Assembly (NCBI GenBank): GCA_026004535.1
Contig: BPJI01000001.1
Location: 79,915-143,914, forward strand
Direction of reading: 5' to 3'
DNA length: 64,000 bases
Source of the DNA: Candidatus Parcubacteria bacterium
Lineage (GTDB): Bacteria; Patescibacteriota; Minisyncoccia; UBA6257; HR35
The translations under genes were made by a program, and so were the position numbers. Below, piece after piece: positions 1-62,363 of this stretch; the first letter of the stretch is position 1; every line of letters starts with the position of its first letter. The notes beneath the pieces were generated by a model. The model was not told where the DNA came from. It ran no database searches and worked only from the letters and a program-made list of their open reading frames with translations.

Positions 1-665
1 AAGATTGTCGCTAATTTTTTTCTGGCCTTATTTAAACGATATAAAGTTTCAACAACGTGAACAGGCAATCTGATTGTTCTTGCTTGATCAGATAAAGCTC
101 GAGAAATGGCTTGCCTTATCCACCAGGTAGCAAAAGTTGAAAATTTAAAGCCGCGCCGCCAATCAAAACGATCAACAGCCTTAATCAAGCCAGCATTACC
201 TTCTTGAATCAAATCCAAAAATGTTAAGCCTTTACTTCGGCCGATGTATTTTTTGGCAATACTGACAACCAATCTTAAATTAGATTTAATTAATCTTTCT
301 CTAGCCTCTAAATCTCCCTTAGCTGCTTTTTTAGCTAATTTTTTTTCTTCTTCAGGAGTAAGCAAAGGGTATTTACTGATTTCGCTTAAATATCTTTGAG
401 TTGCGTCAGACAAGCTTTCTTCATCAATTGATTCTCTTTTACCTTCTTCCCAAAGCTCGCCTGTGCTTTTAAGTTCAATACCGCTTGTTTCCAATCTTTC
501 ATAGATTTTATCCAAAATATCAATATTTTCTTCAACATTAGGGAACAAATATAAAATCTCATCTTCAGTCACAAAACCTCTTTCTTTACCTTTGGCAATC
601 AAGGATTTAATTTTCTCTTCAATAATCTCCTCTTTAGTTTTAATTTTTTTTTCTTTTTTATGCAT
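1..665 (-). CDS. rpoD: RNA polymerase sigma-70 factor RpoD; N-terminal ~220 aa inside the window, C-terminus lies beyond position 1
   Basis: Minus-strand translation gives a sigma-70 region 2 block ([55 protein letters not shown]). ATG at 665..663 sits immediately after the dnaG stop, the classic dnaG-rpoD arrangement. Confidence 0.85.
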
Positions 666-2499
666 TTTTACTTATCTTTCTTAATTCCTGAGCTATATTT
701 TTAATCTCATTTAATATTTTAACTGATTCATCCTCATTGGCAAATTTCAATTTTTCATTCAATTGCTTAATATTTTTCTTCAAAAACAATATTTTTAAAT
801 TTTTAACTGTTCTCTCCAGTTCTTTTTTCAAATTTAGATTGGTTGTTAAGTAAAAATTTTTTGTCATTTCTAGATAATTAAATTCTTCTTCGTCGAGTTT
901 ATTTTCTAAAACCTTTAAAAATAATTGTTTAAATTTTTCTGATAGATATAAGGTAAAATCTTTAATATCATGCTGAACAAACAGAACTGACGCTGAACTA
1001 TCTGAATTATTTTTAGACGCAGAACTACACTGAACTGACTCAGAACTGTCGGGACTTTTCTGTGAGTTCTGTGTTAGTTCAGTAAGTTCTGCGGTAGTAC
1101 TTTTTTGTAAGTTCTGTGTGAGTTCTGTATAATTCTGCTTATTTAACAAAGTATAAATTAAAGAAATTGCTCTTAAAGAAAATTTTTCTTCTAATGTCTT
1201 CTCTTCGCTTAAATTACTAATTTTTTCTCGAGGCAAATTGATTTCTCTACGTAAACTATCAGGTAAATTTTTTAGTTCTTTTTCTAAAAATGATTTGTCA
1301 ATGTTTAATTTAACTGAAAGTTGATTTAAATAATTATCAATTTCAATGGCTGAAAGATTTTTTATTTGAGGCAAAAATATGGCTAAAATTTTTCCTTTGT
1401 CTTGATAATTATTTAAAAGATAATTTAATAAATAATCTTCAAACTTTTCTTCACTAATGTCTGCGTTAGTCCGCGTGTAGTCTGTATTAGTCTGGATTTT
1501 GCCAAAATATTCTCCCAAATCCTTTCCTGGATATATCAATCTAAATGTTTTAAAACCTAATTGCTGAGCCATTAAATTAGCTCTTAAACTCGCCTTAAAA
1601 CCAGCTTCATCATTATCAAAAGCTAAAATTAAATTGGATGCATATTTTTTTAGTTTTCTTAAATGATCTTCAGTTAAAGCCGAACCAGAAACAGCAACTA
1701 TATTTTTTAAATTGTTCTGCCAAGCTAAAAGAAAATCAAATTGGCCTTCGACTAAGATTATTTTTTTATCAACTAAGATATATTCCTTAGCAAAATAAAG
1801 ACCATAAAGAAATTGAGATTTCTTAAAAATTAATGTTTCAGGTGTATTTAGGTATTTTGGTCCAGGGAAATTGTCAGGAAAAATTCTACCAGTAAAACCA
1901 ACTAATTTGCCCTTTTCATCTCTTAAAGGGAAAATTATTCTTGATTGAAAACGATCAAAATTTTGGTTATCAATTAGGCCTGCTTTTTTAATTAATTCAT
2001 AACTGTAGCCTTGGGAATATAAATAATCTCTTAATAAAGTATGACCTGGCGAAAAACCAATTTCAAAAAAATTAATTATTTCTTTTTTCAATCCTCGTTT
2101 TAATAAATAATCTAGAACCTCTTCATTTTTCTTTAATTCTTGGCGAAAGAACTTTAAAGCTGAATAATTAATTTCCAAAACTTCTTTTTCCTCCTTTAAA
2201 CTTTTAAACTTTTCTCCTTTTAAACTTCCAGTATCGATACCATATTCTTCTTTGATTTTTTCTAAAACTTGTGCGTAATTTAAATTTTCGATTTGCATTA
2301 AAAATTTAATTACATCACCGCCTACAGAACAACCAAAACATTTAAAAATTTGCATCTCGGGCGAAACATAAAAAGATGGTTTTGTTTCTTTATGAAAAGG
2401 ACAAAGACCACTATAGTACTTACCAGCTCTTTTTAATTTGACATAACGACTGACAACCTCAACGATATCTAATCTGTTTTTAATTTCTTCAATGTTCAT
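658..2499 (-). CDS. dnaG: DNA primase DnaG, carrying an in-frame low-complexity insertion
   Basis: CHC2 zinc finger ([34 protein letters not shown]), Toprim region and synteny with rpoD. Residues ~450-510 are encoded by a repeat element (see the repeat at 963..1140). Confidence 0.85.
963..1140. repeat. ~160-bp palindromic MITE-like element (CAGAACTGA / TCAGTTCTG arms) lying in-frame inside dnaG
   Basis: Sequence gaattatttttagacgcagaactacactgaactgactcagaact...ttttctgtgagttctgtgttagttc closely matches 63881..64000 (gaattatttttaaatgcagaactatgctgagctgacgcagaact...ttttctgtaagttctgtgttggttc). The left and right halves are mutual reverse complements. Confidence 0.75.
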
Positions 2500-3979
2500 T
2501 GCTTAATTTTTTTAAAATGTCGTCTAAATTTTTATTTTTTTGATTTATTTCCTTCTTTTTTTCAATAACTATTTCTGCCTCAATCGCTTTCTTTAAAGAA
2601 ATACCCGTCTTTGTTCTTTCACTACATTCATCACAGATATTTTCACCCGAAGAAAGAAAAGGCTGACGACATTCTAAACAATAAACAACTTCTTTACCTT
2701 CTTTTTTTACTTGAGTAAAAACTTTAGCAATTCTACCTTCAACCAAACTTCTTCTTTTGGTATATTTTAGATGATTGAGATTAATTATTTCATCTTTAAA
2801 AGAAATTTCTGGCTTCATGATTGGAGGTAATGTTTTGGCTAAAAATGGATTAGTTGGTTTACCATCAACCAATAATTTAACATAAACATAATAAGAAGGC
2901 AAATTAACCAAATCGTCAATTTTGACTAAATTAGCAAACTCTTTACTAAAAATTTCAGCATCATTTGCTCCTAGACGAAAAACGATAAAAGTACCAACAT
3001 TACCAAAAACAGCCTTGATAATTTCTTCAGGCACTTGATCTAAATATTGATGAGCTAAAATTAAACTTAGATGATATTTTCTAGCTTCAGATAAAATATT
3101 AATGAACGATTCAGTAGCAAAATTTTGAAATTCATCAATATAAAGGTAAAAGTTTTTTCTTTGTTCTTCAGGGAGATCAACTCGACTCATAGCTGCTAAT
3201 TGAAATTTGGTAATCAAAAGACCACCTAAAAGCCTTGATGTTTCCTCACCAATGGCACCAACAGAAAGATTAGCTAAAAATATTTTGCCTTCATCCATAA
3301 TGTTTCTTAAATCAAAAGCTGACTCTGACTGGCCAATTATATTTCTGATTAAAGGATTGGTAATAAATTGACCAATTTTATTTTGAATTGGAGCAATAGC
3401 TTCAGTTCTAAATTGTAGATGATATTTACTAAATTCTTGTGTCCAAAAAGCTTTAACAACTTCATCTTTCAAATTACCAACAACCTGCTTTCTAAATTTA
3501 TCATCAGCAAGCATTCGGCTAACATCGAGCAAGGTCGAATTTGGCCATTCTAAAAGAGCCAACAAAGTATTGGTCAAAATATATTCCATTCTGGCTGACC
3601 AAGCATCAACCCAAATTTTTTTAAAGATTGAAAGCAAACTAATGGCAGTTACATGTCTATGTTCCCACGCAACTTTTTCTAAAGGATTAAAAGCTATTGG
3701 GTGATTAACATCTGTTGGATTAAAATAGATCACATCATCGATTCTTTCTTTGGGAATATAATCTAAAATTCTTTGAACACTATCACCATGAGGATCTAAA
3801 AAAGCTAAACCATTATTGTTTTGAATATCAAAATTCATCATATTTTCTAATAAAGTAGTCTTTCCTTGACCCGTCTTACCAATAATATAAATATGTCTTA
3901 ATCTATCTTTGTCCTTAATGCCAAATCTTGATTCTTTACCTCTAAAAGTCAAAATACCGAGAGGCAAAATTCTTTCCAT
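2489..3979 (-). CDS. VirD4/TraG/TraD-family P-loop NTPase (type IV coupling-protein-like ATPase domain) with a C-terminal Cys4 zinc ribbon; no N-terminal TM segment
   Basis: Walker A IGKTGQGKTTLL, a DPHGD motif (FLDPHGD), Walker B LYIDEFQNF and a C-terminal CLECRQ...CDECS ribbon. Overlaps dnaG by 11 nt in an operon-like arrangement. Confidence 0.5.
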   Translation of the reverse strand: MERILPLGILTFRGKESRFGIKDKDRLRHIYIIGKTGQGKTTLLENMMNFDIQNNNGLAFLDPHGDSVQRILDYIPKERIDDVIYFNPTDVNHPIAFNPLEKVAWEHRHVTAISLLSIFKKIWVDAWSARMEYILTNTLLALLEWPNSTLLDVSRMLADDKFRKQVVGNLKDEVVKAFWTQEFSKYHLQFRTEAIAPIQNKIGQFITNPLIRNIIGQSESAFDLRNIMDEGKIFLANLSVGAIGEETSRLLGGLLITKFQLAAMSRVDLPEEQRKNFYLYIDEFQNFATESFINILSEARKYHLSLILAHQYLDQVPEEIIKAVFGNVGTFIVFRLGANDAEIFSKEFANLVKIDDLVNLPSYYVYVKLLVDGKPTNPFLAKTLPPIMKPEISFKDEIINLNHLKYTKRRSLVEGRIAKVFTQVKKEGKEVVYCLECRQPFLSSGENICDECSERTKTGISLKKAIEAEIVIEKKKEINQKNKNLDDILKKLSNEH

Positions 3980-3986: not shown

Positions 3987-5309
3987 TTATAATTCTGGTA
4001 AAGGAATCTCGGGCGAGGGCGGTATTTCTCTAACAGGGGTTCTTTCAATACCTGAAGGAGGAACAAATTCCATAGGTGGGTGAAAGAGCGTAGCTAATTC
4101 TTCGCTGTTTAAAATAAAGGCTGAATCCAAATTTTTGGGTTTTAATTTATTTTTAATCCTTTGGGGTAATGCTGGTAGTCGATAACCTTTAAAATAAGCA
4201 TATTCTCTTCTTTTAATAAGAAAAATTCTTTTAGGCGACATTTTGGCCGCAGACATTGTTAAGGGGTAAAGACTGAAACCATTCAAATCTTCGGTTGAGA
4301 AATTTTTCAACGTACTTGAAATTAAAGCAATAATAGATTGTTTTTCTTTGTTAAAAATATCCTTAGTAGCTAAATAGCTTATTCTGAAATTACACCAAAA
4401 ACCCAATTTTCCTAATTTTTGCTGGATTAATTCCAAGACCCTTCTTTCGCCTGGGGTCAATTTTTGAATATTAAATTCTTCTTTGGATTTTTCTTCTTTT
4501 GTTTTCCAAGTAGGTTGACGAAACGGTGCTAACAAAAGATTAAAGATAAATTCTCTAACCTCTTCCCAGATACTTTGTTCTTTTTCTTCTTTTTTACCTA
4601 TCATCTTATTTACTATCTTTTGACCTCTCTCAATCCATTTTTTACCATGTTCTGAATTATCAGGAGTCGTAGGCAAAACAAATATTTGAAAAATTAACCA
4701 TTCTTTATTGGAAATTTGCCAAGCAGCTTCGGAGAAAGTTGTTAAAGGATCAATTTGTTGTTCTTTAGGTAAATATTCTAAAACAGAAAATGTTTTTATG
4801 GGGTAAGCATCTTCTTTATTTAAACGAGCATCGAAAATTTCGCCATCGAAAAGTGAATTAGGAATAGCTGGAGGGAAAAAGCCAAGAGGGTCTTCTGAGT
4901 CAATAAACTGAATCTGTGGATATTGGGAATAAAACCTTGTTTTAATAAATTCCTTTAATTCGCTGGGAAAGCGAATAAAAAATCTTAATTTACCGTCATG
5001 AGCAATAATTAAAAATGTATAACTTACAGGAACGAATCCCTTAATTTTTAGATTATACCAGGTAAGATCAGTTTCTGGATCAGGATGAATTGAATGTAAA
5101 GAATTAAAAACCTCTTCCATAGCTCTGGGATTACGAGTTATGCCTGAAGGGAATTTAATTTCTAAAAAGCTCCATTTCAACTGTTTAAGATATAAAGATC
5201 TTTTATAGCCCGTATATTTATCCCATAAAATTTGGAAAAATAGGATTGGTAAAAAAAACCACCAGAAATCAAAGAGAAATCTTAAAATGAAAGTAATTGG
5301 ATCAATCAT
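3987..5309 (-). CDS. Membrane-anchored protein (one N-terminal TM helix plus ~400-aa soluble domain), function unknown; translationally coupled to the ATPase
   Basis: Hydrophobic N-terminus [29 protein letters not shown]. There is an 8-nt overlap with the upstream gene and a 7-nt gap to the downstream ATPase gene. Confidence 0.4.
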
Positions 5310-6177
5310 TTTTTAAAACATAAACTCCTGGTTTAATTAAAACAAATTCATTATGTTTAATCAGTTCATTTCTGATTGAATTTGGATTATAGGTTTTGTG
5401 CCAGTAGTAATGAATTGATTCATCTTCCACTTTAGCTAATTGATGTAATTTCTGGTAAATTTCTTTAAAATGCATCGGTCTTCTCTCTAATTTAAAAATT
5501 AAATAAATTTTATCTTTTAAACAACGAGGGGTAATAAAATTATGATTCTTAACGCCCCAAAAATTAAACGGGTTTTTGCCAATATTTTTTAAAATTTTTA
5601 AAAAATCAATTAGATCATCATAACCTGGATTTATGTTAAAATGTTTTTTAATTTCCTTTAGAATTAAAGCTAAAATTTTCTCTTCAGGATAAACCTCTCT
5701 GCTGTCTAAAAAGGTAAGATAAATTTTTTTAAGTAAATGGAGACTGAATTGATAAATTTTTTCATTTTCAGCATAAAAATCGTCAAGATAATCATCGTTT
5801 TGATAATAAATTATTTCCTCTGAAAAAAGACTAAAAAATTTAAAGATTTTAATTTCTTGAAAAGAAAAATCAAGTTTTTGATCAAGAAAGTAAAAGAATG
5901 TTTTCCCTCGACGAACTCCAATTGGTTTTAAAAACTTTTTAGATTGTTTAATGATTTTACTTACTTCTTTATTTTTTTTAATTAAAGGGATAATTTTATT
6001 TAAAGCATTTTCTTGAATTTGTCTTATCCTCTCACGGGTTACATTATAATCATTTCCTAACTCTTCTAATGTTTCTTCCTCGCCTTCTAGACCAAATCTT
6101 CTGATAAGAATATCTTTTTCCCTCTGATTTAGACATGAAAAGACATCGCTTAATATTTTTGTCAAGTTCATAATCAT
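5302..6177 (-). CDS. Protein with an N-terminal sigma-70 region-4 HTH and a C-terminal HARE-HTH-like winged helix; not a full sigma factor
   Basis: N-terminus [47 protein letters not shown] matches sigma-70 region 4. C-terminus [15 protein letters not shown]...[24 protein letters not shown] resembles HARE-HTH (RNAP delta-like). First gene of a four- to five-gene minus-strand block. Confidence 0.5.
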
Positions 6178-6206
6178 ATTATATCAAAAATTTTCTTAAA
6201 TTAAAA

Positions 6207-6232
6207 CCCCCGCTGTAAGCGGGGGTTTTAAT
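6207..6232. terminator. Bidirectional rho-independent terminator hairpin
   Basis: aaaacccccgctgtaagcgggggtttt is a perfect 9-bp GC-rich stem flanked by A-run and T-run. It lies between the small PT-rich gene and the sigma-r4 gene. Confidence 0.6.
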
Positions 6233-6251
6233 AATTATTTTTTTGACTAAA

Positions 6252-6467
6252 TTATAGTGTTGGTGTTGCTGATGGTGGTACTTCGGACTCTGGTGTTGGT
6301 GGTAAATCTGGTGTTGGTGGTAATTCAGGTGCTGGTGGTACCATAGGTGTTGGTTCAGGAGTTGGTGTTGTTGAACCTGGCGCTCCACCTCTTTTTACAA
6401 ACCAATAAGTAACTAGACCCAAGACCAAAAGAATAACGACAACAATTATTATATTTTTTTGATTCAT
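6252..6467 (-). CDS. Small membrane-anchored Pro/Thr-rich protein
   Basis: N-terminal TM IIIVVVILLVLGLVTYWF followed by TPEPTPMVPPAPELPPTPDLPPTPE. The overlapping His/Gln-rich ORF 6179..6388 is an alternative-frame artefact. Confidence 0.3.
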   Translation of the reverse strand: MNQKNIIIVVVILLVLGLVTYWFVKRGGAPGSTTPTPEPTPMVPPAPELPPTPDLPPTPESEVPPSATPTL

Positions 6468-6688
6468 TTTAAAGATCCTAATTTTAAATTACGACCATTA
6501 ATTATGTATTATGTTATAATTTTATCATAAATATTTAAAAAGTCAAAATTGAATCTGTGGAAAACTAGTTAATGAAAAATCTGTTTTTATTTATTATTTT
6601 CGTAATTATTATAATTCTATACGTCTGGATCTTTTCCAACCCTACTCTCTATTTTGAATTTTTAAAAATTATTGAAAAAATAAAATAA

Positions 6689-6726
6689 TTATCACTCTTG
6701 ACATTAAGGTGATAATTTGATATAAT
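6689..6726 (+). promoter_or_regulatory. Sigma-70 consensus promoter (TTGACA-17-TATAAT) overlapped by a CIRCE-like inverted repeat, upstream of the hsp20-hrcA-grpE-dnaK operon
   Basis: -35 ttgaca at 6698..6703, 17-nt spacer, -10 tataat at 6721..6726. The inverted repeat TTATCACTC-N9-AGGTGATAA at 6689..6715 resembles CIRCE (TTAGCACTC-N9-GAGTGCTAA), and hrcA is encoded two genes downstream. Confidence 0.55.
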
Positions 6727-6783
6727 ATTAATAAATTTTAAAGCTGACTAAGCTTAAGGTCGCATTAGGATTTAATTTAAAAC

Positions 6784-7191
6784 ATGGCCTTTCTTAGAAA
6801 GTGGGAACCATTCAGAGAATTAATCGAAAGATTCTTCGAGGAAGATTTTGATTTTCCTTTTTCCCCAAGATTAGCTACTGATGTTTATGAAACTGATAAG
6901 GATATTGTTGTTGAAATGAACGTACCTGGGTATAAAAAGGAAGATATTAAAATTTCTTTTCAAGATGGTTATTTAAAGATCGAAGGTAAAGCAAATGAAG
7001 AGAAAGAAGAAAAAGAAAAAAATTATTGGCGCAAAGAAATTAGAAGGGGATCATTTGTTAGGGTCATTCCTTTACCTAAAGAGGTTGATTCTAAAAAAGC
7101 CAAAGCAACATTTAAAGATGGAATTTTAACAATTTCTTTACCGAAGGTTGAAGAGGAAAAAGAGACTGGTGAAGAGATTAAGATCGAATAA
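6784..7191 (+). CDS. Small heat shock protein, Hsp20/alpha-crystallin family
   Basis: Alpha-crystallin domain (DIVVEMNVPGYKKEDIKISFQDGYLKIEGK...GSFVRVIPLP...KATFKDGILTISLPK). First gene after the promoter/CIRCE-like site. Confidence 0.85.
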   Translation: MAFLRKWEPFRELIERFFEEDFDFPFSPRLATDVYETDKDIVVEMNVPGYKKEDIKISFQDGYLKIEGKANEEKEEKEKNYWRKEIRRGSFVRVIPLPKEVDSKKAKATFKDGILTISLPKVEEEKETGEEIKIE

Positions 7192-7808
7192 TGTCATTAA
7201 CAGATATTCAAAAATATCTGTTTTATAAGTTAGTAAGAAGTTGCATTAAGAGAAAAAAACCTATTGGCTCTAAATTGTTGGCTAAAAAATTAAAAAATAA
7301 ACTTTCGCCTCCAAGTTTAAGAATCTATCTTCGGAAAATTGCCCAAAACGGCTATTTGGAAAATGTTGGCAGTGGTAGATTACCAACAGATAAAGGCTGG
7401 TACTATTATTTAGAAAATTTTAAGCTGAAACCTGAAATAAATTTGCCTCAAAATTTTGATCTTACACTTTGGGCTGAATTAACTAAAAATATTGTTTTTC
7501 TTTTCGAAGACAATCTCGTTATTAAAGGCTTGAAAAATGTTATTAATTTTAGGGAAAAGGAAATTGTTGAAGATTTATTAAATTTATGCGAGAATTTAGA
7601 GACAATTATCAAGAATTTAAGGAATGAGTTTAATATTTTAATCGGTCGTGATTTGCCTCAATCGAAAACAAAAAAGTTGTCTTTAATTGCTTATAAAGAT
7701 AAAAAAAGAGTTATTGGTTTTTTAGGTCATAAAATTAATTATTATCATACTAGTTTGGCTTTATTAAAAAAATTAACTGACAATGAACGAGGAAAAATTA
7801 CCAACTGA
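7191..7808 (+). CDS. hrcA: Heat-inducible transcription repressor HrcA (short form)
   Basis: N-terminal winged HTH aligns with HrcA (KKPIGSKLLAKKL...LSPPSLRIYLRKIAQNGYLENVGSGRLPTDKGWYYYL versus PVGSRTLSKK...SSATIRNEM..LEELGFIEK.HSSSGRVPSEKGYRYYV). Position upstream of grpE-dnaK. Confidence 0.6.
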   Translation: MSLTDIQKYLFYKLVRSCIKRKKPIGSKLLAKKLKNKLSPPSLRIYLRKIAQNGYLENVGSGRLPTDKGWYYYLENFKLKPEINLPQNFDLTLWAELTKNIVFLFEDNLVIKGLKNVINFREKEIVEDLLNLCENLETIIKNLRNEFNILIGRDLPQSKTKKLSLIAYKDKKRVIGFLGHKINYYHTSLALLKKLTDNERGKITN

Positions 7809-8280
7809 ACCAGAAACAATCCAAGAATTAATGAAAAAAATCGAGAATTTAGAGAAAGAAAAGAATGAATATTTTGAGAGTTTAAAAAGAGCTAAAGGTG
7901 ATGTTTTGAAAATTCAGAGAGAATTTGAAGAAAAATTTGAAGCAATGAAAGAGATTGCTAATTTTGACTTAATTTATCACTTGCTGTCTGTTCTAGATAG
8001 TTTTGAACTAGCTTTTCAAAAACAAAAAGAAATTGATCAAGGATTTTATTTAATCTATTCTCAATTAAAAGACATCTTAGAAAAATACGGTTTAGAAGAA
8101 ATTGAAACTGAAAATAAAAAATTTGATCCAAATTTTCATGAAGCAATTATAAGTAAAAAATGCGAGAAAGAAAATTGCCAAGGAGATGATGAAGGTTTAA
8201 TTGTTGAAACCCTAAGCAAAGGTTATCTTTATAAAGGTCGAGTTTTAAGACCAGCGAGAGTTAAAATTATTAATCACTAA
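7783..8280 (+). CDS. grpE: Nucleotide exchange factor GrpE
   Basis: Coiled-coil N-terminus and GrpE C-terminal domain (FDPNFHEAI...GYLYKGRVLRPARVKI), directly upstream of dnaK. The start may be the internal Met (MKKIENLEK) to avoid overlap with hrcA. Confidence 0.8.
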   Translation: MNEEKLPTEPETIQELMKKIENLEKEKNEYFESLKRAKGDVLKIQREFEEKFEAMKEIANFDLIYHLLSVLDSFELAFQKQKEIDQGFYLIYSQLKDILEKYGLEEIETENKKFDPNFHEAIISKKCEKENCQGDDEGLIVETLSKGYLYKGRVLRPARVKIINH

Positions 8281-10085
8281 TGGCAAGAGTTTTAGGTATT
8301 GATTTAGGAACAACTAATTCAGTTGCAGCAATTGTTGCTGCTGGTGTTCCAAAAGTCATCGAGAACAGAGAAGGTTCAAGAATAACTCCTTCAGTTGTGG
8401 CTATGTCTAGATCTGGAGAAAGACTTGTTGGTATTTTAGCTAAAAGACAAGCAGTAGCTAATCCTAAAAACACAATTTTTTCCGTCAAAAGATTAATTGG
8501 AAGGAGATTTAATGACCCTGAGGTTCAAAAAGCTAAAACTATTTTGCCCTATGAGATTAGAGAAAGCGAAAATGGAGGCGTTGAGGTAAAAATGGCTGAT
8601 CGATGGTATAAACCCGAAGAAATCTCAGCGATGGTGCTTCAAAAAATCAAATTAGATGTTGAAGAAAAATTAGGCGAAGAAATAAAAGAAGCAGTTATTA
8701 CTTGCCCAGCTTATTTTGACGACTCTCAAAGAGCAGCAACTAAAGCAGCTGGAGAAATTGCTGGGTTTGAAGTTAAAAGATTGTTACCTGAACCAACGGC
8801 AGCTGCTTTAGCCTATGGCCTTGATAAAAATATCAACGCTAAAATTTTAGTTTATGATTTTGGTGGTGGAACTTTTGATATTTCAATCTTAGAAGTTGGC
8901 GAAGGTGTAATTGAAACCAAAGCTATTGGTGGTGATACATTTTTAGGTGGTGATGATTTTGATCAAAGAATTATTCAATTTTTAATTGACTGGTATAAAA
9001 AAGAAGAAGGCGTTGATTTGAGTAATGACATTTTAGCTTTACAAAGATTAAAAGAGGCAGCTGAAAGAGCTAAACAAGAACTTTCAACTTTATACGAAAC
9101 AGAAATTAATTTACCATTTATTACTTCAACTCCTGAAGGGCCAAAACATCTTTATTACAAATTAACTAGAAGCCAATTAGAAGATTTAACTCGAGATTTG
9201 GTTGAAAGATCAATTGAACTTACTAAACAAACATTAAATGAAGCCGGTCTTAAACCAAGTGATATTGATGATATTGTTTTGGTTGGTGGTCAAACAAGAA
9301 TGCCTTTGATTCAACAAAAAGTCAAAGAATTATTCGGCAAAGAACCAAGGAAAGATATTAATCCAGATGAAGTTGTTGCTATTGGTGCCGCTATTCAAGC
9401 TGGCATTATTCAAGGAGAAATAAGAGAAATTTTACTTTTAGATGTTGTGCCTTTAACTTTGAGCATTGAAACCTTGGGTGGTATTGCTCATCCAATGATT
9501 CCCAAAAACACTCCCATCCCCTATTCAAAAAAAGAAATCTTTACTACAGCCGAAGATAATCAAACCGTAGTTGAAATTCACGTTGTTCAAGGAGAAAGAC
9601 CCTTGGCCCAAGATAATAAAACCTTGGCCAGATTTTTACTTGAAGGCATTCCTCCAGCACCAAGAGGCGTGCCTCAAATTGAAGTAACTTTTGATGTTGA
9701 CCAAAATGGAATTTTAACCGTAACTGCCTTAGATAAAGCAACCCAAAAAAGTCAAACTGTTAAAATCACAAATTCAGTCAATATCTCTAAAGAAGAAATT
9801 GAAAAATTAAAAAAGGAAGCTGAAGAGTATGCTGCTCAAGATTTTCAAAAAAGAAAATTAGCTGAAACCAAAAACCAAGCAGACAATTTAATTTATCAAG
9901 CCAAAAAATTACTTCAAGAATATCAAGATAAAATTAATCAAGAAACGAAAAATCAAATTGAAGAAAAAATAAAAGAGCTCGAAAATTTAAAAAATACAAG
10001 CCAAAATTATGAAGAAATTGATGCTAAAATTAAAGAATTAAATCAATTGCTAGCCGAAATTGGCAAAACATTCTATCAACAATAA
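8280..10085 (+). CDS. dnaK: Chaperone DnaK (Hsp70)
   Basis: [17 protein letters not shown] and [11 protein letters not shown] motifs, and the full 601-aa Hsp70 architecture. Confidence 0.95.
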
Positions 10086-10588
10086 TGGATGATTATTATC
10101 AAATTTTAGGCGTGCCAGAAAATGCTGACGAAGAAACAATTAAAAAGGCTTTTCGAGAACTAGCCAAAAAATATCATCCTGACAGAGGTGGTGATGCTGA
10201 AAAATTTAAGAAAATTATTGAAGCTTACAGGGTTTTATCAGACAAAAAATTAAGAGCTGAATATGATCAAAGAAGAAAATGGCAAACAACATTTACTTTT
10301 GATTTTGAGGATATTGGTGATTATTTAAGAAGACAATTTTTTGGTGAAGACTTGTTTGAAGACTTATTTAGAAGCATTTTTACTCATTTCCAAGAACCAA
10401 GAACATATAGTCAGCAAGAAATAGTTTTGGAAATTAATCCCTTAGAAGGCTTAAAAGAAAAAACAATTGAGATTCCTTTTTATGATGGTAAAAGGAAAAT
10501 TTCGCTTAAAATTAATTTTAAATTGCCCAAAAATTTACCTGATAAAATTAAAAAATTAGTCGATGAATTAAAGAAAGAAATTAAATAA
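10085..10588 (+). CDS. J-domain co-chaperone (DnaJ-like, J domain only)
   Basis: DYYQILGV...[17 protein letters not shown]...EAYRVLSD J domain with HPD motif. No zinc-finger or C-terminal domains. Confidence 0.7.
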
Positions 10589-10848
10589 TGCCGAAAACAA
10601 GATCAGCAAAAAAAGCTTTAAGAAAAAGTCAAAAAAGATGGTTAATAAATGAACGCCGAAGAAGAAAAATTAAATTAGCAGTTAAAAATTTTCTTCAAGC
10701 AATCAAAGAAAAAAATAAAGAATTAGCACAAAAAAATCTAAGTTTAGTTTATAAAGAATTGGATAAAGCTGGCAAAACTTTTATGCATCAAAACAAAGTT
10801 GCCCGATTAAAATCAAAATATGCTTCAATGCTAAGCAAATTTAATTAG
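10588..10848 (+). CDS. rpsT: 30S ribosomal protein S20
   Basis: [29 protein letters not shown]...; basic 86-aa protein with the S20 N-terminal signature. Confidence 0.8.
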   Translation: MPKTRSAKKALRKSQKRWLINERRRRKIKLAVKNFLQAIKEKNKELAQKNLSLVYKELDKAGKTFMHQNKVARLKSKYASMLSKFN

Positions 10849-11337
10849 CCTCTCAGGTTTTCAGCTTCTTAGCTTCATAGCTTAAAAGATTATCATTTTC
10901 TAAGGGAAATTTTAATGAGATATGAATTCTTGAGATCTCCCCAAGCCTCTTAAATAATCAATTAAAACATCACTATCTATTAAAATTCTTCTGCCTCCAA
11001 TTTCTTCTAATTTTTCTAACATATGCTCAAGGAACTTTTATTACCAAAATCAGTCTTTAAAACACCAAATGCCTTTCTAATAAAGTAAGATTTATCTAAA
11101 ATTTTTCCTTTTTTAAGTAATTTAGTAACCATAAATTAATTATAACATAAATTAGCTTTCAGGTCTCATGATGATCAGCTTCTTAGCTTCTAAGCTTCTT
11201 AGTTTCTTAATTTGATTAATTTAAATAAAATATAAGATTTTACATACAAACAATATTCTAAATTTGCAGAATGTGAGAATGTTTGGTATTGCTGGAATTT
11301 TATTTTTAAATTTGGTGATTATTTTTATTTAATTTCC
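10849..11337. repeat. Noncoding region carrying 8-bp microsatellites (TAGCTTCT)n and a decayed vapBC-like (PIN toxin/antitoxin) remnant. This is the 3' flank of duplicated module copy 1.
   Basis: cagcttcttagcttcatagc at ~10861 and cagcttcttagcttctaagcttcttagtttc at ~11171. Minus-strand fragments read MLEKLEEIGGRRILIDSDVLIDYLRGLGRSQEFISH* (PIN N-terminus) and MVTKLLKKGKILDKSYFIRKAFGVLK... Related sequence recurs at 52010..52100. Confidence 0.6.
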
Positions 11338-11876
11338 GCGTAGGTCAGCGTGATAATATTAAATATTTGTGCTCTTAAGGCTTTATTTCTTGGTCTGATA
11401 AGGCACGATTATAGATTCGAACTTCATCGATGAAACCTTCATCCAAGTATCCAGGCGACCAGCATATCCTCCAATATAAAATTCCAATATATTTGAATGG
11501 AGTTTGCCTGCTTCCTGATTTTTAACTCTGCATTAAATAAATTTTCATTCCGCCGTATTTTTATCATATGTCCCACTAGTCAAATACCATTGATAACAGA
11601 TATACTACCAGATACACAATTTCGCTAGCTACATTAGTGGCATCATAGAATTAAATCTAAACGATTATCATCTCCAAGCAAACCGCAGTATGCCAACCTA
11701 TTTTGCAAATAAAATTGATGTCATACTTGAATCTGATTATACCAGACATAGTAAATGAGGAGTATTACGTTGAGCTACATCATTAAAGATGGGTTGATTG
11801 GATACTTACATAATCATCACTCCATCAAAACTTAAAGCTTTACCTACTTTACCATCAACACAAGTTGGTCCATTAA
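11338..11876 (-). pseudogene. Frameshifted remnant of a LamG (concanavalin-like) domain, formerly fused to the upstream pilin gene (copy 1)
   Basis: Minus-strand fragments include ...GFIDEVRIYNRALSDQEIKAL..., the canonical LamG C-terminal motif. No ORF of 60 aa or more remains. Homologous to 52741..52935. Confidence 0.55.
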
Positions 11877-12533
11877 CTAAGTTCCATTATTTCCATTTCC
11901 TGATAAATCTTTAGCTGTACAATCATCAAAACTCCAATAACCTACAAGTCCTTGAGCTTGGTCAATTAATCTTTTGTTTGTTCCTGCTGAAAATAGATGA
12001 GGGTAATTATCATTATCATTTTTTGAAGCTTGATTTCTAGAATCTTCTAATTGAGCATAGACAGCATAACTTCCTCCAGCAACAAACGCATAGTAATATG
12101 GAGGTCTATTGATTGGATCAATGAAAAGTCTAGAAAGATTAATGCTTGAAAATTGATTAAAAGGAATAGGAATCCAGCCAGTACCATCAATATTTGTTGG
12201 AGTTGCTGAGCATCTATATGACCAGCCTGAAGGAAGCTGTGGTAATTGACTTATCCATTGACCACAAGTTGATGAAGTATCAGGAAGAGAGATATAGACA
12301 ACATTTGAGGAAGCATATTGAAGTTCAGAAAAGGTGCCTTGAGTTTCAAAAAGAATAAGGTCAAATATTTTTTCAAGATTTTTAAGGTCTGAAGTTCTTT
12401 GACTATCTCTACCTCTTTTAAAGATATCTGCTGGCTTAATGACAACAATTAAGACAGTAGCTAAGATAGCTATTAGAGCTAAGACAACTAAGAGTTCAAC
12501 TAAAGTGAAGGATTTATTCATTTTTTTATTCAT
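11877..12533 (-). CDS. Type IV pilin-like protein (prepilin N-terminal cleavage/methylation domain) truncated at the start of its LamG domain; possibly still expressed as a pilin
   Basis: MNKKMNKSFTLVELLVVLALIAILATVLIV is a class III signal / prepilin motif (FTLVELLVV). The C-terminus ...LVGYWSFDDCTAKDLSGNGNNGT is the typical start of a LamG domain but is followed by a stop. A near-identical copy lies at 53412..53930. Confidence 0.55.
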   Translation of the reverse strand: MNKKMNKSFTLVELLVVLALIAILATVLIVVIKPADIFKRGRDSQRTSDLKNLEKIFDLILFETQGTFSELQYASSNVVYISLPDTSSTCGQWISQLPQLPSGWSYRCSATPTNIDGTGWIPIPFNQFSSINLSRLFIDPINRPPYYYAFVAGGSYAVYAQLEDSRNQASKNDNDNYPHLFSAGTNKRLIDQAQGLVGYWSFDDCTAKDLSGNGNNGT

Positions 12534-18221: not shown

Positions 18222-18638
18222 ATAAAACGCTGACAGCTACAGAAAATCACTTCGTGACGCTGACAGCTGCGGGAATGTTTTAACTACACGGACGGTCTAC
18301 CGGATATAGTTACCCGGATAGCTTGCCAGATAATGTTTACCCAGATGATTACTGGGATAGATTACCCGGATAGCCACCTGGATTATTTTACCCGGATGAG
18401 TACAGGATAAAAAATATTTTATAAATCATCCGGTTTATATCTGGTTAAGTATATGCGGTAAAAATCCGGGTAGAAGTTGTTATCCGGTTTATATCCGGGC
18501 AAATTCATCCAGTATGCATCCGGATAATTAATAATACGATTCACATCCGGGTAGTATTATCCGGTGATAATCCAGGTAGAAAATATTTTCTGCGGCTGTC
18601 CGCGGTAATAATACTGTCTGCTGTCCGCGGGAACAAGA
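18222..18638. repeat. GC-rich palindromic array: ~9 direct copies of (T)TACCCGGATAG at ~13-bp phase, an AT-rich centre, then ~11 copies of the reverse-complement box ATCCGG(G)TA. Flanked by GC-rich boxes (GCTGACAGC x2 on the left, GCTGTCCGCGG x2 on the right).
   Basis: Read directly. Left boxes at ~18297, 18311, 18325, 18338, 18352, 18363, 18376, 18389 and 18402. Right boxes at ~18428, 18439, 18464, 18482, 18493, 18507, 18518, 18544, 18559 and 18570. GC content is far above the surrounding sequence. Confidence 0.85.
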
Positions 18639-28776: not shown

Positions 28777-28836
28777 ATGTGGTTTACCGTTTTCGAATCT
28801 CATCCCCACTGCACGCAAACAGGTAAAAACAAGCTT
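28777..28836 (+). pseudogene. Decayed duplicate of the tRNA-Ser 3' end plus ~25 nt of its downstream flank
   Basis: atgtggtttaccgttttcgaatctcatccccactgcacgcaaacaggtaaaaacaagctt aligns with 28612..28664 (catgtgggttcgaatcccacccccaccgcacgcaaacagttaaaaataagttt). Confidence 0.5.
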
Positions 28837-28837
28837 T

Positions 28838-29665
28838 TTAATTCTCATATAGCAAAGGAGTGGCCAAACAGATTGAAGAATAAGTACCAATAAGAATACC
28901 TATTTGAATTGATAAAAGAAATGCTCTTAAATCAGGAATTAAAATTGACAAAGGCAAAATTGCTAAAACAGCCGTTAAAGAGGTAAAAATTGATCTCCTT
29001 AAGGTTTGCTGAATGCTCAAATTAAAAACCTCAATTGTTTTTTTGCCTGTTTTTAAAATATTTTCTCTCAAACGATCAAAAACAACGATTGTATCATGAA
29101 CTGAAAAACCAGCAACAATAAGTAAAGCGGTAATAAATTTAATGTCTAAATCAAAATTAAAGAATTTTGACAGCAAAACATAAAAGCCGGTTGTCGCCAT
29201 AACGTCGTGAAATAAAGTTATGACCACAATAAAACCTAAAAGAAATGGTGAAAATTGATTTTTCAATTGATAAAAAGCAAAGGCAACATAAAGACCAATT
29301 GCTAATAAAACTAGAATAATCATCAACATTGCTTTTTGTCTTAATTCTGAACTCAAACTACTACTAATTGATTCAAATCTTATTCTTTGACTTTGATTAT
29401 CTTGTTTTTGAATTTCTTGCCAGAGAAGATTTAAATTTTCTTGACTTTTAATCAAATAACCATCTTGAGTTTGATAATATACTGCTTTAAGCTTTAAATT
29501 ATTAATAATTGAGGGTACATTAGCTTTGGTTTTAACTTCTAAAATTTGACCACCAATCAAATCAATGCCTAAATTAGGGTTAAAAAAATAAAAACTCAGA
29601 CCACCAAACAGAACCAAAATCAAGCTTAAAAAATAAAAATAATATCTATATTTAATGAAATCCAT
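28838..29665 (-). CDS. secF: Protein translocase subunit SecF
   Basis: N-terminal TM, periplasmic domain and six-TM C-terminal bundle. Follows secD immediately. Confidence 0.85.
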   Translation of the reverse strand: MDFIKYRYYFYFLSLILVLFGGLSFYFFNPNLGIDLIGGQILEVKTKANVPSIINNLKLKAVYYQTQDGYLIKSQENLNLLWQEIQKQDNQSQRIRFESISSSLSSELRQKAMLMIILVLLAIGLYVAFAFYQLKNQFSPFLLGFIVVITLFHDVMATTGFYVLLSKFFNFDLDIKFITALLIVAGFSVHDTIVVFDRLRENILKTGKKTIEVFNLSIQQTLRRSIFTSLTAVLAILPLSILIPDLRAFLLSIQIGILIGTYSSICLATPLLYEN

Positions 29666-51544: not shown

Positions 51545-51756
51545 CATTGAAGTATCTATGGGGACTCGCCCCGAACCAGAGCCTTTGGCACGGTTTCCTG
51601 TACCAGAGTTATCTTCTAACACGATACAGGACCCCAAACCGTGCTCTGCACTGGTTTGGGGCGGGGCGCCCTGCACTGTGCTATGCTCTAGTGCATGGCG
51701 AACCCACAACCTCTGGCACCCCATGCCAGTGCGCTAACCAATTGCGCTATGCCCCG
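51545..51756 (-). other. tRNA-Pro-like 5' two-thirds (58 nt, intact acceptor 5' strand, D and anticodon arms, anticodon GGG) fused to a ~150-nt GC-rich structured element instead of a T arm and acceptor 3' strand
   Basis: Minus strand from 51756 reads CGGGGCA TA GCGC AATTGGTTA GCGC A CTGGC ATGGGGT GCCAG AGGTT GTGGG TTCG, then CCATGCACTAGAGCATAGCACAGTGCAGGGCGCCCCGCCCCAAACCAGTGCAGAGCACGGTTTGGGGTCC... with several mutually exclusive 9-10-bp stems. No matching T-arm or acceptor 3' strand was found. Confidence 0.5.
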
Positions 51757-51990: not shown

Positions 51991-52740
51991 TTAAAAATTA
52001 TAACACAATTTAGCTTTCAGGTTTCAGGTTTTTAGCTTCTTAGCTTCAGAGCTTCAAATATTATTATCTTCTAAGGAAAATTTTAATGAGATACGATCTC
52101 GTTAAATTTCTCAATTTTTGAATTTCTTAAGAAATTGAGAAATTAAAATTGATGGGTTTTAAAATAGATTTTTGAGTCATCAAACGACAGTCTAAGATGC
52201 CATAGCGTTTTTTATATAGTCAAATCTTCTCATTTCTACTAACTTAGTGCGGTCGCATCAAGATAGTAGAAGTGGAAATATTCGGACGTACGACGTCCCG
52301 ATATTTATTTTAACACTTGGGTAAGATAATTGTGAAGTCGTTAATTTGTGAACTTGTGAATTTATTAATGAATGAATTTAGTTAATTTTGTATTTTAGCA
52401 AACCTAGGTAAGTTAAAATACGAAAATCTTTAATTTTATCTTTATTAAATGAATGAATTTAAGGTTATCTAATCTCCAAAGTCGTGTTTAGCACGCCATG
52501 GCGTTTTATAGAGGATTATCTAAAATTAGGTTTCGGGTTATTAGCTTCTTAGCTTCTTCATTTTTTAAATTCTACAATCCAAGGTGACGTTTAAAATGCT
52601 ATAGCGTTTTATAGGTAACCTTCTAAAATTAGCTTTTAGGTTTATAGTTTCGAATATTTTTAAAATTTTAAAGCTGAGAAGCTAAGAAGCTGAAAGCTAA
52701 GAAGCTGAAAGCTAAGAAGCTTTTGAATTATTTTGTAGCT
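51991..52740. repeat. Complex repeat region: 8-bp microsatellites (TTCTTAGC / TTTCAGC units), a vapC-like remnant, and three ~150-bp degenerate units sharing GCCATAGCGTTTTATAG. This is the 3' flank of duplicated module copy 2.
   Basis: gctttcaggtttcaggtttttagcttcttagcttcagagcttc at ~52020..52062; a remnant reading ...EIVSH* at ~52065..52100; gccatagcgtttt-type boxes at ~52190, 52492 and 52588; and gctaagaagctgaaa x3 at 52684..52735. Confidence 0.7.
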
Positions 52741-53930
52741 TCATATAAGAGCTTTAATTTCTTGGTCTGATAAGGCACGATTATAGATTCGGACTTCGTC
52801 GATAATACCCTTATAGAATATCCAACAGTTAGCAATTCTGGCTGCAATATACAAATCATTATCCGAAACTTCGTTATTGGTTTGTCCTGTTTGAGTATAG
52901 CTTAAGACCATCCTTATATAAAAACTTCGTACCAAGAGATTTTTTCCAATGTAAATGCCACTAGAATACCATTGGAATTTATATCAGGATATACGGAGGA
53001 TACGAAGAAATAAGGGTTGTACATTATTGGCGTTATTAAAGAATCTTCAAAGGCGTGATGATCCATATATGCCAACCTATATCCTAGACCTGTATTATAT
53101 GCTAGAATAGGATTCACTGTCTTACTTCTGTTGGGTATTCTATCCACACAAATGAAATCATTACTTCGCTACATTTATAGATGGGTTATATAGAATACTT
53201 TCACATAATCATCAACCCCATCAAAACTTAAAGCTTTGCCTACTTTACCATCAACACAGTTAGGCCATTATAAGTGTTCCATTATTTCCATATCCTGATA
53301 ATCTTTAGCTGTACAATCATCAAAACTCCAATAACCTACAAGTCCTTGAGCTTGATCAATTGAAGTCTTTTATTTGTTCCTGCTGCATAAAGATGAGGTA
53401 ATTATCATCCATCATTTTTGAGCTGTGAGACTGAGGATTGCTTCTAATTGAGCTAGTAAGTCATAACTTCCTCCAGCAACAAATGCATAGTAATATGGAG
53501 GTCTATTGATTGGATCAATGAAAAGTCTAGAAAGATTAATGCTTGAAAATTGATTAAAAGGAATAGGAATCCAGCCAGTACCATCAATATTTGTTGGAGT
53601 TGCTGAGCATCTATATGACCAGCCTGAAGGAAGCTGTGGTAATTGACTTATCCATTGACCACAAGTTGATGAAGTATCAGGAAGAGAGATATAGACAACA
53701 TTTGATGAAGCATATTGAAGTTCAGAAAAGGTGCCTTGAGTTTCAAAAAGAATAAGGTCAAATATTTTTTCAAGATTTTTAAGGTCTGAAGTTCTTTGAT
53801 TATCTCTACCTCTTTTAAAGATATCTGCTGGCTTAATGACAACAATTAAGACAGTAGCTAAGATAGCTATTAGAGCTAAGACAACTAAAAGTTCAACTAA
53901 AGTGAAGGATTTATTCATTTTTTTATTCAT
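52741..53930 (-). pseudogene. Type IV pilin-LamG fusion gene, copy 2, more heavily decayed
   Basis: 53412..53930 encodes the same prepilin N-terminus as 11877..12533 (identical over ~150 aa, then diverging). 52741..52935 encodes the LamG C-terminus (IIDEVRIYNRALSDQEIKALI). The middle is broken into 77-aa and 64-aa fragments with indels relative to copy 1. Confidence 0.6.
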
Positions 53931-55973: not shown

Positions 55974-57977
55974 ATGAGGATAATTAAACTTATTTTAATT
56001 TTACTTTTTATTTTTTTTAGTTTTGCGATTTTCTTATTCACAATTCAGTCTGTTTATCTACCTAGTTCAGATTTAATTGGTGAAAAAATTGTTGGTGGTG
56101 GAACTGAAATTTATGATCGAACAGGAAGGATTCTCTTATATAAAGTTGGTTTTAGACGCTCGTGGGCTAATTTTGAAGATATTCCTGAAAATGTAATTAA
56201 GGCAACTTTAATTGCTGAAGATAAAGATTTTTATTTTCATCGCGGAGTAAGTTTTAAAGGAATAATAAGATCAATTTATCTCAATCTAAAAACAAAAAGT
56301 TTTGGATATGGTGGTTCAACCATTACCCAACAATTGGTTCGTAATTTGTTTTTAACTAAAGAAAAATCTTTATTAAGAAAAATAAACGAAATAATTTTGG
56401 CTTTAAAACTTGAAAGAAAATATTCGAAAAATGAAATTTTAACCTATTATCTAAATTCAATCTATTATGGCGAAGGTAATATAGGTATTAGAGCCGCAGC
56501 TGATTATTATTTCAATAAAAAATTAAAAGATTTAACTTTGTCTGAAGCAATAATTTTAGCTTCAATTCCTAAAGCTCCAGCTTTATATTCACCAATTAAC
56601 GAAGAAAATATTAAAAGATTAAAAATAAGAAGAGATTATTTGCTTTTGAGACTAAAAGAAGAAGGTTGGATTAATGAAGAAGATTATCAAATAGCTATCA
56701 ATGAGGAGATTGAAATTGTCAAAAGCAAGTATGCTGGTATGATTGCTCCTCATTTTGTTATTGAAGTTATTAATCAATTAAAAGAAATGTTTCCCCAAGA
56801 AAGCTTAGAAGAAAAAAATTTAAAAATAATAACCACTCTAGATTATGATTTGCAAAAAATTGCCGAAGAGTCTGTAAGAGAAGGAGCTGAAAGAAATAAA
56901 AAAAACTACGGTGGTAGTAATGCTGCTTTAATGGCAATTAATTCTAAAACTGGCGAGGTTTTAGCTTTAGTTGGTTCAAAAAATTTTTTTGATGAAACAA
57001 TCGATGGTCAAGTTAATGTTCCTTTTAGATTTCGCCAACCTGGTTCTGCTTTTAAACCAATTTCTTATGCTGCCTTATTTGAATTAGGTTATCCTGATAA
57101 TACTATTTTATTTGATGTACCAACTGATTTTAATGGTTATAAACCACAAAATTTTGATAAAGTTTTTAAAGGACCAGTAACCTTAAGACAAGCTTTGACT
57201 GAATCAAGAAATATTCCTTCAGTCAAAGTTTTTTATTTAGCTATACCTGAAAGAGTTATTGATTTGGCTCGAAAAACTATGCCTTATTTAAAAGATTGGC
57301 AAAATTATGGACTTTCTTTAGGCTTAGGAACAGCTGAGGTTAGAATGACTGATTTAATTAGATTTTATGGTGCTTTGGCTAATGATGGTAAATTAGTTTC
57401 TCAAAGTTTAATTTTAAGAATTATTGAAGATAAAAAAGTTATTTATGAATATCAACCACAAGAAGAACAAATTGTTTCTCCAGAAACAGCAAGAATTTTA
57501 AATGATATTTTAAAAGATATTGAAGCTAGAAAAGGTCTTTTGCAAAGAAGCTTAGGGTTGACTATTTTTCCTAATTATGAAGTTGCTTTAAAAACTGGAA
57601 CAACTCAATTTTATCAAGATGCTTGGACTTTTGGTTATACACCGCAAATTGTTGTTGGTGTTTGGGCAGGCAATACTGATGGTCGCCGAATGAATTCTTT
57701 AGGAGCAAGTCTTGTTGCGGCTTTACCAATTTTCCACCAATTTTTATCTCAAACAATTACTTTAAATAAAATTCAACCAGAAAATTTTATCCCTCCGGAA
57801 AAAAGATTTGTTAATAAGCCAATGCTTAATGGCTCTTATATTTCTCAATATGGTATTCATAATATCTTATTTTACATTGACCGTCAAAATCCTTTAGGCG
57901 AAATTCCTGAGGACCCTTATCAAGATCCGCAATTTATTTTTTGGGAAAATGGAGTGAGAAAATGGTTTGGTTATTAA
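55974..57977 (+). CDS. Class A penicillin-binding protein (GT51 glycosyltransferase plus transpeptidase)
   Basis: GT51 motifs EDKDFYFHRGVSFKGIIRS and GGSTITQQL. Transpeptidase motifs SGSAFKP, SRN and KTGTT. Confidence 0.85.
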   Translation: MRIIKLILILLFIFFSFAIFLFTIQSVYLPSSDLIGEKIVGGGTEIYDRTGRILLYKVGFRRSWANFEDIPENVIKATLIAEDKDFYFHRGVSFKGIIRSIYLNLKTKSFGYGGSTITQQLVRNLFLTKEKSLLRKINEIILALKLERKYSKNEILTYYLNSIYYGEGNIGIRAAADYYFNKKLKDLTLSEAIILASIPKAPALYSPINEENIKRLKIRRDYLLLRLKEEGWINEEDYQIAINEEIEIVKSKYAGMIAPHFVIEVINQLKEMFPQESLEEKNLKIITTLDYDLQKIAEESVREGAERNKKNYGGSNAALMAINSKTGEVLALVGSKNFFDETIDGQVNVPFRFRQPGSAFKPISYAALFELGYPDNTILFDVPTDFNGYKPQNFDKVFKGPVTLRQALTESRNIPSVKVFYLAIPERVIDLARKTMPYLKDWQNYGLSLGLGTAEVRMTDLIRFYGALANDGKLVSQSLILRIIEDKKVIYEYQPQEEQIVSPETARILNDILKDIEARKGLLQRSLGLTIFPNYEVALKTGTTQFYQDAWTFGYTPQIVVGVWAGNTDGRRMNSLGASLVAALPIFHQFLSQTITLNKIQPENFIPPEKRFVNKPMLNGSYISQYGIHNILFYIDRQNPLGEIPEDPYQDPQFIFWENGVRKWFGY

Positions 57978-62342: not shown

Positions 62343-62363
62343 AAGATAATTATAAGATAGAGA

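Follow-up and report, generated by a model that had tools for sequence, protein, structure and literature searches.

Results

An in-frame insertion in the DNA primase gene

The stretch of DNA analysed here, called the window, covers 64,000 nucleotides of contig BPJI01000001.1 (positions 79,915 to 143,914, forward strand) of a Candidatus Parcubacteria bacterium (assembly GCA_026004535.1). Near its left end lies dnaG, the gene for DNA primase, at positions 658 to 2499 of the minus strand, and inside this gene we found an in-frame palindromic DNA element with copies at other sites of the genome. The encoded protein of 613 amino acids carries the Pfam domains Zn_ribbon_DnaG (residues 3-90), DNAG_N (117-238) and Toprim (246-331). 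It is 100% identical to GIW67204.1, which comes from a metagenome-assembled genome (MAG) named 'Candidatus Parcubacteria bacterium' with a longest contig of 556,583 bp.

Compared with its closest relatives, which have only 537 to 559 amino acids, the window DnaG shows a net insertion of 57 codons (Y457 to K513; 171 nt at positions 961 to 1131, minus strand), the boundaries being accurate to about ±2 codons. The segment is missing from all 14 aligned orthologues (50-76% identity). At the codon level, the orthologue on the JGI (Joint Genome Institute) contig L126 has 27 codons where the window gene has 84, a gain of exactly 57. The flanks align cleanly with the orthologues, including ...LYLSEKF on the C-terminal side, and the C-terminal domain past the insert is conserved and still in frame. 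Since the insert is missing in all relatives examined, the insertion is comparatively recent. An earlier note on this DNA, made from the letters alone, had quoted a low-complexity peptide as translated within dnaG, and this exact peptide is found in the 613-residue open reading frame (ORF). The same note had reasoned that a segment shared with orthologous primases would be a native linker; the alignment does not reveal such sharing.

A repeat falsely collapsed into dnaG during metagenome assembly would be a trivial explanation, the source being a MAG and repeats being classic sites of misassembly. Two contigs of the independent Logan assembly of run DRR290133 match the window with 0 mismatches: L001 over positions 1-3137 and L002 over positions 57278-64000 (6723 nt), the latter extending beyond the window edge. 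Because two independent assemblies agree in this way, the dnaG insert is no artefact of a single assembler. Furthermore, the insert comprises exactly 57 codons and no stop, and the remaining genic copies described below are likewise in frame. We consider an assembly artefact to be scarcely credible.

The position of the insert was evaluated with an AlphaFold model of DnaG based on a 15-sequence alignment (mean predicted local distance difference test score, pLDDT, of 77.9). The model shows a low-confidence interdomain linker at residues 415-433, a helix at 436-451, the insert at 457-513, a helix at 512-518 and then the C-terminal bundle. The pLDDT drops below 50 at residues 467-510, flanked by the confident helices 436-451 and 512-518. 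The insert is thus predicted to form a loop within the C-terminal helical domain, after its first helix, and not to lie between the catalytic core and that domain, as the earlier note had it. This loop of 57 residues would be hydrophilic, rich in Ser, Thr, Gln and Asn, probably disordered and translated through, and the primase carrying it presumably stays functional.

The insert is a palindromic array of short units

The imperfect palindrome, which we call family A, extends from position 972 to 1139 as defined by its DNA fold and by the unit RCAGAACTNAC. As single-stranded DNA, positions 955-1145 fold at -38.5 kcal/mol, compared with -15.3 ± 2.9 kcal/mol for dinucleotide shuffles (z = -7.96); not one of 200 shuffles folds as well, and base pairing runs from about 972 to 1139. 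This agrees with the previous description of a hairpin whose left half is reverse-complementary to the right. Read on the sense strand, family A consists of several RCAGAACTNAC units, a short A-rich loop and an equal number of inverted AGTTCTGNGTC units. In the dnaG copy, five units lie on the plus strand (982-1049) and five on the minus strand (1063-1129), on either side of a centre at about 1050-1062. The palindromic stretch has a GC content of 37.6%, as compared with 29.0% for the window. The window contains the octamer GCAGAACT six times, where 0.84 would be expected by chance, and every occurrence falls inside one of its two family-A copies.

Searching the element against Rfam gave a single match, to mir-4081 (20.9 bits, the gathering score being 70; E = 0.48), which is a chance match; a known structured RNA was rejected on this ground, no match exceeding the gathering threshold. 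A covariation test of the hairpin carries no information, because each unit is able to pair with all of the inverted ones. Two readings of the unit itself were also dropped. A LexA or Cheo box (GAAC...GTTC) would have the GAAC-N4-GTTC spacing, which does not occur in the element sequences read, and an uptake signal sequence would be spread through the window, while the unit is confined to the elements.

Copies of family A at unrelated sites share one reading frame

The second copy in the window lies at positions 63881 to 63996 of the minus strand, in the spacer between recA and comM, and is 81% identical to the dnaG copy over 114 nt (970-1083 against 63883-63996). The earlier note had correctly recognised a homologous noncoding copy there (63881 to 64000) and had taken it to be cut by the window end. 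Contig L002 places the recA stop 10 nt past the window edge (comM occupies 62364-63866), so that the copy is intergenic and essentially complete, with about 116 nt. Its first clear unit is at 63989-63996, and the edge truncates no more than one degenerate unit. The copy is shorter than that of dnaG because the latter carries two copies of a 45-nt 5′ module. Through L002, dnaA and dnaN were mapped to about 59406-60767, the gene order being recA-comM-pgk-rnhA-dnaA-dnaN; with dnaA and dnaN near the right window end, the replication origin is probably a few kb from the intergenic copy.

A six-frame peptide query returned two further proteins. One is a phosphomannomutase of the same genome (P0121, GIW67576.1, on contig L122), whose gene contains an in-frame family-A copy that is 83% identical to the dnaG copy over 126 nt. 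The other, P0122, is a hypothetical protein encoded on contig BPJH01000002 (L123) of GCA_026004515.1, the MAG of a hot-spring Parcubacteria bacterium; its in-frame copy is 76% identical to that of dnaG over 156 nt. A nucleotide profile of the four copies revealed fragments at 284-365 (intergenic) and 1295-1357 (genic) of L122 and, in a P-type ATPase gene, at 4691-4725 and 5941-6018 of L123, and no other convincing match in the window. About 66 kb of the window genome therefore hold three full copies and two fragments, and L123 holds one full copy plus fragments. Copies elsewhere, on which the earlier note had made its interpretation depend, thus exist in the recA-comM spacer, in both proteins and as fragments.

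The four full copies differ in the number of their units. The order of unit strands is +++++----- in dnaG, ++++- in the intergenic copy, ++++---- in P0122 and ++++++-- in the phosphomannomutase gene, where the 3′ half is missing. Part of this variation concerns the 45-nt module (15 amino acids), which sequence comparison detects twice in tandem in dnaG (1084-1128 and 1039-1083, together 1039 to 1128, minus strand). The phosphomannomutase gene has three copies of the module, P0122 has about two and the intergenic element has one. The folding z-scores are -7.96 for dnaG, -3.33 for the intergenic copy and -3.76 for P0122.

Six-frame translation of both window copies gave a single frame free of stops, the one that DnaG uses; the intergenic copy has this same frame open and the same orientation relative to transcription as the dnaG copy. 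The three full genic copies are all read in this frame and orientation, and their peptides are 53-67% identical to the DnaG insert.

Change after insertion was visible at the phosphomannomutase site. A relative co-occurring in the same run (P0126 on L141, its phosphomannomutase being 71% identical) carries a degraded copy, still in frame, at the site used in P0121. Of 219 aligned positions, 138 are identical, and the degraded copy no longer gives a hairpin signal (z = -1.8 versus -3.6). Judged from these sequences, the phosphomannomutase insert is older than that of dnaG. The P0121 gene also has a third in-frame insert (L122, 701-841), which encodes ISALPSGHTPEAHSPRSAIVRTSAGMTLRQTRR, is markedly GC-rich and has ends (GCGCGTTGCC...GGCAAACGCGCC) that are complementary to each other; it has the look of a further hairpin family.

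Related palindrome families in the window and in relatives

A smaller in-frame insertion of 8 extra codons relative to the L126 orthologue is located after Toprim (1459 to 1497, minus strand). The small low-complexity insertion previously noted at about 1440 to 1500 is hence a genuine insertion, but it is more than mere low complexity, being a fragment of a dispersed family (family B, unit CRGACTAACG), of which it represents the forward arm. The fragment, ACAGACTACACGCGGACTAACGCAGACA, matches ACAGACTACACGCAGACTAACGCAGACA in three genes of L123, those of P0122, a DUF411 protein and a P-type ATPase, all of which encode YTQTNADNIKSQxNA. In the P-type ATPase gene, units of families A and B stand side by side. 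Complete in-frame palindromes of ACGCGGACTA and AGTCTGCGTA units were found at two phosphomannomutase sites of the JGI relative L139 (z = -6.5 and -7.1), and their arms match the family-B sequence of dnaG. Beside the family-B site, the DnaG orthologue P0002 (L140) has a different, GC-rich insert of 9 codons in the post-Toprim loop (ACCAGTCTCGCCGATAGCGTGTCTAGGCGG, TSLADSVSR). By sequence comparison, the DnaG loop after Toprim is a recurrent insertion site.

The genes of L123 with these arrays form part of a metal-homeostasis cluster (4600-11500; P-type ATPase, CsoR-like repressor, DUF411, P0122), and no fewer than five arrays of family A or B stand in frame within these 7 kb. By comparison, 21.6 kb of contig 1 from this MAG (L135) are free of such arrays, and their GC content is 3.6 points lower than that of BPJH01000002. 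The metal-homeostasis region may be an acquired island or belong to a mis-binned contig.

A third family fills the uvrC-secG spacer of the window with a palindrome of about 410 nt (family C, 18222 to 18638; DNA fold -70.3 kcal/mol, z = -6.15). It comprises about seven TACCCGGAT units followed by about seven ATCCGGGTA units, nested in outer CGCKGACAGC units. Arrays of CCGGAT occur five times in the 21 kb of L138, mostly between genes and once in frame inside the phosphomannomutase gene. They recur in L139 and are often nested in outer arms of family-B units. The phosphomannomutase orthologues of the clade (383-494 amino acids) carry differing lineage-specific in-frame inserts at about six hot spots, and the peptide modules of these inserts recur at different sites and in different genomes. 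When eight such inserts of L138 and L139 were folded as DNA, four were strong palindromes (z from -6.5 to -8.7) made of inverted arrays of short units (CCGAAT, CCGGAT, CGGACTA); the other four had z-scores between +0.6 and -2.7. According to the gene tables, about half of all unit arrays seen are intergenic, in loci where gene calls cover most of the DNA. This share is consistent with selection against most landings in genes. Two small 'genes' with no Pfam match, at L139 12342-12620 (92 amino acids) and L138 17700-17960 (86 amino acids), overlap unit-array palindromes (CCGAAT and CCGGAT, respectively) and are probably spurious ORFs created by the elements.

Distribution of family A

Searches outside these genomes were largely silent. 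A 20-base core pattern gave only two chance matches without extended similarity in JGI metagenomes, and neither a scan of viral contigs nor blastn against phage genomes yielded a real family-A match. A profile of the four peptides, run against 1.84 billion cluster representatives, recovered the phosphomannomutase as its only true match; three eukaryotic low-complexity matches were spurious. The looser pattern of three CAGAACT with variable gaps was abandoned as too unspecific, the matches listed from the genome collection including unrelated tandem repeats and none that fitted the element profile beyond a simple repeat. These negatives are soft, as exact-pattern scans miss diverged copies and clustering at 50% identity can hide lineage-specific inserts. 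The six-frame peptide query illustrates the point: it contained the exact 57-residue insert, yet DnaG itself (P0001) was not returned, so that its sensitivity is poor and its silence elsewhere means little. More generally, word-index searches with low-complexity queries can overlook even identical matches. The distribution of family A would seem narrow, within loose bounds. Searches of the open-access literature turned up no description of such elements in the Candidate Phyla Radiation (CPR, Patescibacteria).

Other features of the window

With Rfam at gathering thresholds, the whole window gave only RNase P RNA, tmRNA and four tRNAs. Two partial tRNA duplicates were called by neither ARAGORN nor Rfam. 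At 51560-51756 (minus strand) lies a second 5′ part resembling tRNA-Pro(GGG), 84% identical to the real tRNA-Pro(GGG) and broken behind the T-arm by a structured, GC-rich stretch of about 130 nt; at 28792-28841 (plus strand) there is an extra copy of the 3′ end of tRNA-Ser with 25 nt of downstream flank. Both could be integration scars or disrupted tRNA genes. A stretch of about 1.5 kb is duplicated 41.4 kb apart (10853-12343 and 52024-53740, 84-98% identity). It includes an upstream region of short TCAGCTTCTTAGCTTC repeats and has the appearance of either a recently duplicated gene or one present in multiple copies. Finally, positions 6254-6405 consist of a short-period repeat of the GGTGTTGGTGGT type with 48% GC, probably a coding repeat rich in Gly and Val.

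Discussion

A proposed dispersed palindromic repeat of the Rickettsia type

We propose that the dnaG insert is a non-autonomous, dispersed palindromic repeat of the kind known as Rickettsia palindromic elements (RPEs), and we give this reading a probability of roughly 0.8. It draws together the insertion into dnaG, the dispersal of the family as DNA, its palindromy, its single reading frame and the related families in relatives. Family-A copies have spread at the DNA level to unrelated sites, as their distribution attests. As about 90% of the genome is coding sequence, the majority of insertions would hit genes. Stop codons leave the element a single open frame out of six; a genic copy can therefore survive only with the right frame and orientation, a length that is a multiple of three, and a permissive surface loop. 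Genic copies that are always in frame are what a selective filter on insertions into essential genes would predict. In the C-terminal helical domain of DnaG, the copy would follow the first helix and be read through as a loop of 57 residues, and the forward arm of family B is another insertion, in the loop directly after Toprim. Slippage of the 45-nt module then alters the copies, and point mutations later erode them, as the phosphomannomutase copy shows. Mobilisation might involve a trans-acting enzyme recognising the 9-11-nt units, hairpin-mediated recombination or template switching.

Could the segment instead be native to DnaG, a linker of low complexity that evolves fast and has grown in place through replication slippage? 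Slippage does act here, as told by the 45-nt tandem duplication in the 5′ part, and DnaG loops do vary in length among orthologues, for example in the 9-codon insert of P0002 beside the small insertion. However, the same DNA is found with 76-83% identity in a spacer between genes as well as within two unrelated proteins, all 14 aligned orthologues are devoid of the segment, and its GC content differs from that of the window (37.6% versus 29.0%). The dispersed copies refute an origin as a slippage-grown linker and leave slippage a role only in change after insertion; we regard this explanation as very improbable. Nor do we give more than the slightest credence to an intervening sequence removed before the mature protein is made, be it an intein, an intron or an excised mRNA hairpin. 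The RNA would form a strong hairpin, and CPR bacteria are known for introns and insertions in their rRNA genes. Inteins, though, have at least about 130 amino acids, so that 57 residues fall far under the size of known mini-inteins; the Ser/Thr/Gln/Asn-rich peptide has neither splice-junction residues nor the conserved intein blocks, and no intron family scores in Rfam. Moreover, the genic copies all keep the frame and use the single open one, which would be needless if they were excised from the RNA.

More can be said for functional cis-elements under selection, the genic copies having been domesticated. They could be arrays of sites for a DNA-binding protein on one helical face, with a period of 10-11 nt, or RNA hairpins acting in mRNA stability or processing. 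Units recur about every 11 nt, matching the helical repeat of DNA; copies outside genes lie between co-directional genes (recA-comM, and uvrC-secG for family C), all copies have one orientation relative to local transcription, and several related families keep the same architecture. Against this, the position relative to genes is not conserved, the number of modules varies from 1 to 3, the phosphomannomutase copy of the relative is decaying and has lost its hairpin potential, and Rfam offers no matching family. On balance we think such a function unlikely.

Several considerations weigh against the RPE-type interpretation itself. No target-site duplication was definable in the AT-rich flanks of the four copies or from the orthologous empty site; short strings shared between flanks (TTAAA, TAAG/TTAG) are inconsistent across the four copies, and the empty site comes from an orthologue whose protein is only 75% identical. 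Neither a transposase nor a RAYT-like gene (REP-associated tyrosine transposase, REP standing for repetitive extragenic palindrome) was identified: no Pfam family of transposase type appears in the gene tables of the loci fetched, and the window ORFs were not screened with profiles. With only four full family-A copies at hand, the data behind copy number and termini are few. That the insert is translated and the primase active is inferred, and the open frame of the intergenic copy could reflect recent common ancestry rather than a property of the family. Finally, GCA_026004515.1 and the window genome may be nearer relatives than the DnaG of the former suggests (51% identity to that of the window), or the contig of that MAG may be mis-binned; its contigs differ in GC content (27.3% versus 23.7%), which makes the distance between the two family-A genomes uncertain.

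On a broader interpretation, the dnaG insert would belong to a superfamily of modular 'unit-array' palindromes that has not been described before and is seen in a few related Parcubacteria; it would be to the CPR what the RPEs are to Rickettsia. Its unit families would be CAGAACT, CRGACTA, CCGGAT/CCGAAT, CCGCGT and GACAGC, able to nest in one another, colonising intergenic DNA and permissive loops of essential proteins, and perhaps moved by an enzyme that reads the 9-11-nt units. For this wider proposal we see the chances as even.

To our knowledge, in-frame palindromic repeats within essential genes are textbook-rare and known mainly from Rickettsia. The same phenomenon in an unrelated lineage, the CPR/Parcubacteria, with tiny AT-rich genomes that are also thought to be host-dependent, suggests convergence, and with it that such repeats thrive under a shared population-genetic regime. 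They may be a general route to new protein loops in reduced genomes. If the superfamily exists, ultra-small genomes would have a steady source of new peptide segments. There are consequences for annotation too, for the repeats lengthen proteins, create spurious small ORFs such as L139 12342-12620 and can break domain models. The nested unit-array architecture offers a concrete handle for finding the mobilisation machinery.

Comparison with known repeat families

In PMC10969869, the RPEs (RPE-1 to RPE-10; Ogata et al. 2000) are described as ten families of repeats of about 150 bp, often lying in frame in unrelated metabolic genes, with a conserved frame per family and at places judged compatible with the fold. 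RPEs are the closest known analogue of family A, as an analogue rather than as a family to which it belongs. Both are dispersed palindromic repeats of about 100-150 bp in the small AT-rich genome of a host-dependent bacterium, intergenic but also unusually often in frame in unrelated housekeeping genes, with one frame per family. In-frame insertion into unrelated genes in one frame is indeed what DnaG, phosphomannomutase and P0122 display. The peptides are believed to occupy places where they disturb neither fold nor function, and the modelled location of the DnaG insert appears compatible with the fold, as an RPE would require. In neither case is a transposase known, and in both the copies decay. 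The host here belongs to the Parcubacteria (CPR) and not to the Rickettsiales, and the likeness is one of description, no sequence relationship being expected. Furthermore, the arms of family A are arrays of a 9-11-nt unit, whereas RPE arms are unique sequence; its 45-nt module varies in copy number, and related unit families combine into nested palindromes.

[quoted passage not shown] Copies of 116-207 nt fall within the MITE range (less than about 500 bp, no transposase gene of their own), the only open frame being that of the host gene, and multiple dispersed copies exist. Terminal inverted repeats are present in the sense that the whole element is an imperfect palindrome; in this respect family A differs from MITEs, where only the termini are inverted. 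The term 'MITE-like' of the earlier note is therefore apt as a description of size, inverted ends and copy number, but RPEs fit better, and with neither a target-site duplication nor a parent transposase shown, membership of family A among the MITEs is unproven.

REPs and their composites, the bacterial interspersed mosaic elements (BIMEs), which are mobilised by RAYTs, resemble family A in having short palindromic units in alternating orientation that build mosaic elements. Each REP is by itself a hairpin of 20-40 nt, whereas no single unit here is palindromic, and by definition REPs lie outside genes; membership fails because three full family-A copies lie inside ORFs. The likeness to the coding palindromes of PARCELs and Nematomorpha is limited to dyad-symmetric DNA being translated as part of a protein. 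PARCELs encode amphipathic tandem domains of 25 residues in accessory or membrane ORFs, in contrast to the hydrophilic inserts in housekeeping enzymes described here, and the nematomorph palindromes encode conserved parts of proteins, in contrast to lineage-specific insertions. Taken together, these comparisons show that family A is best classed with the RPE/MITE kind, as a variant with an architecture of its own that occurs in a phylum new for such elements.

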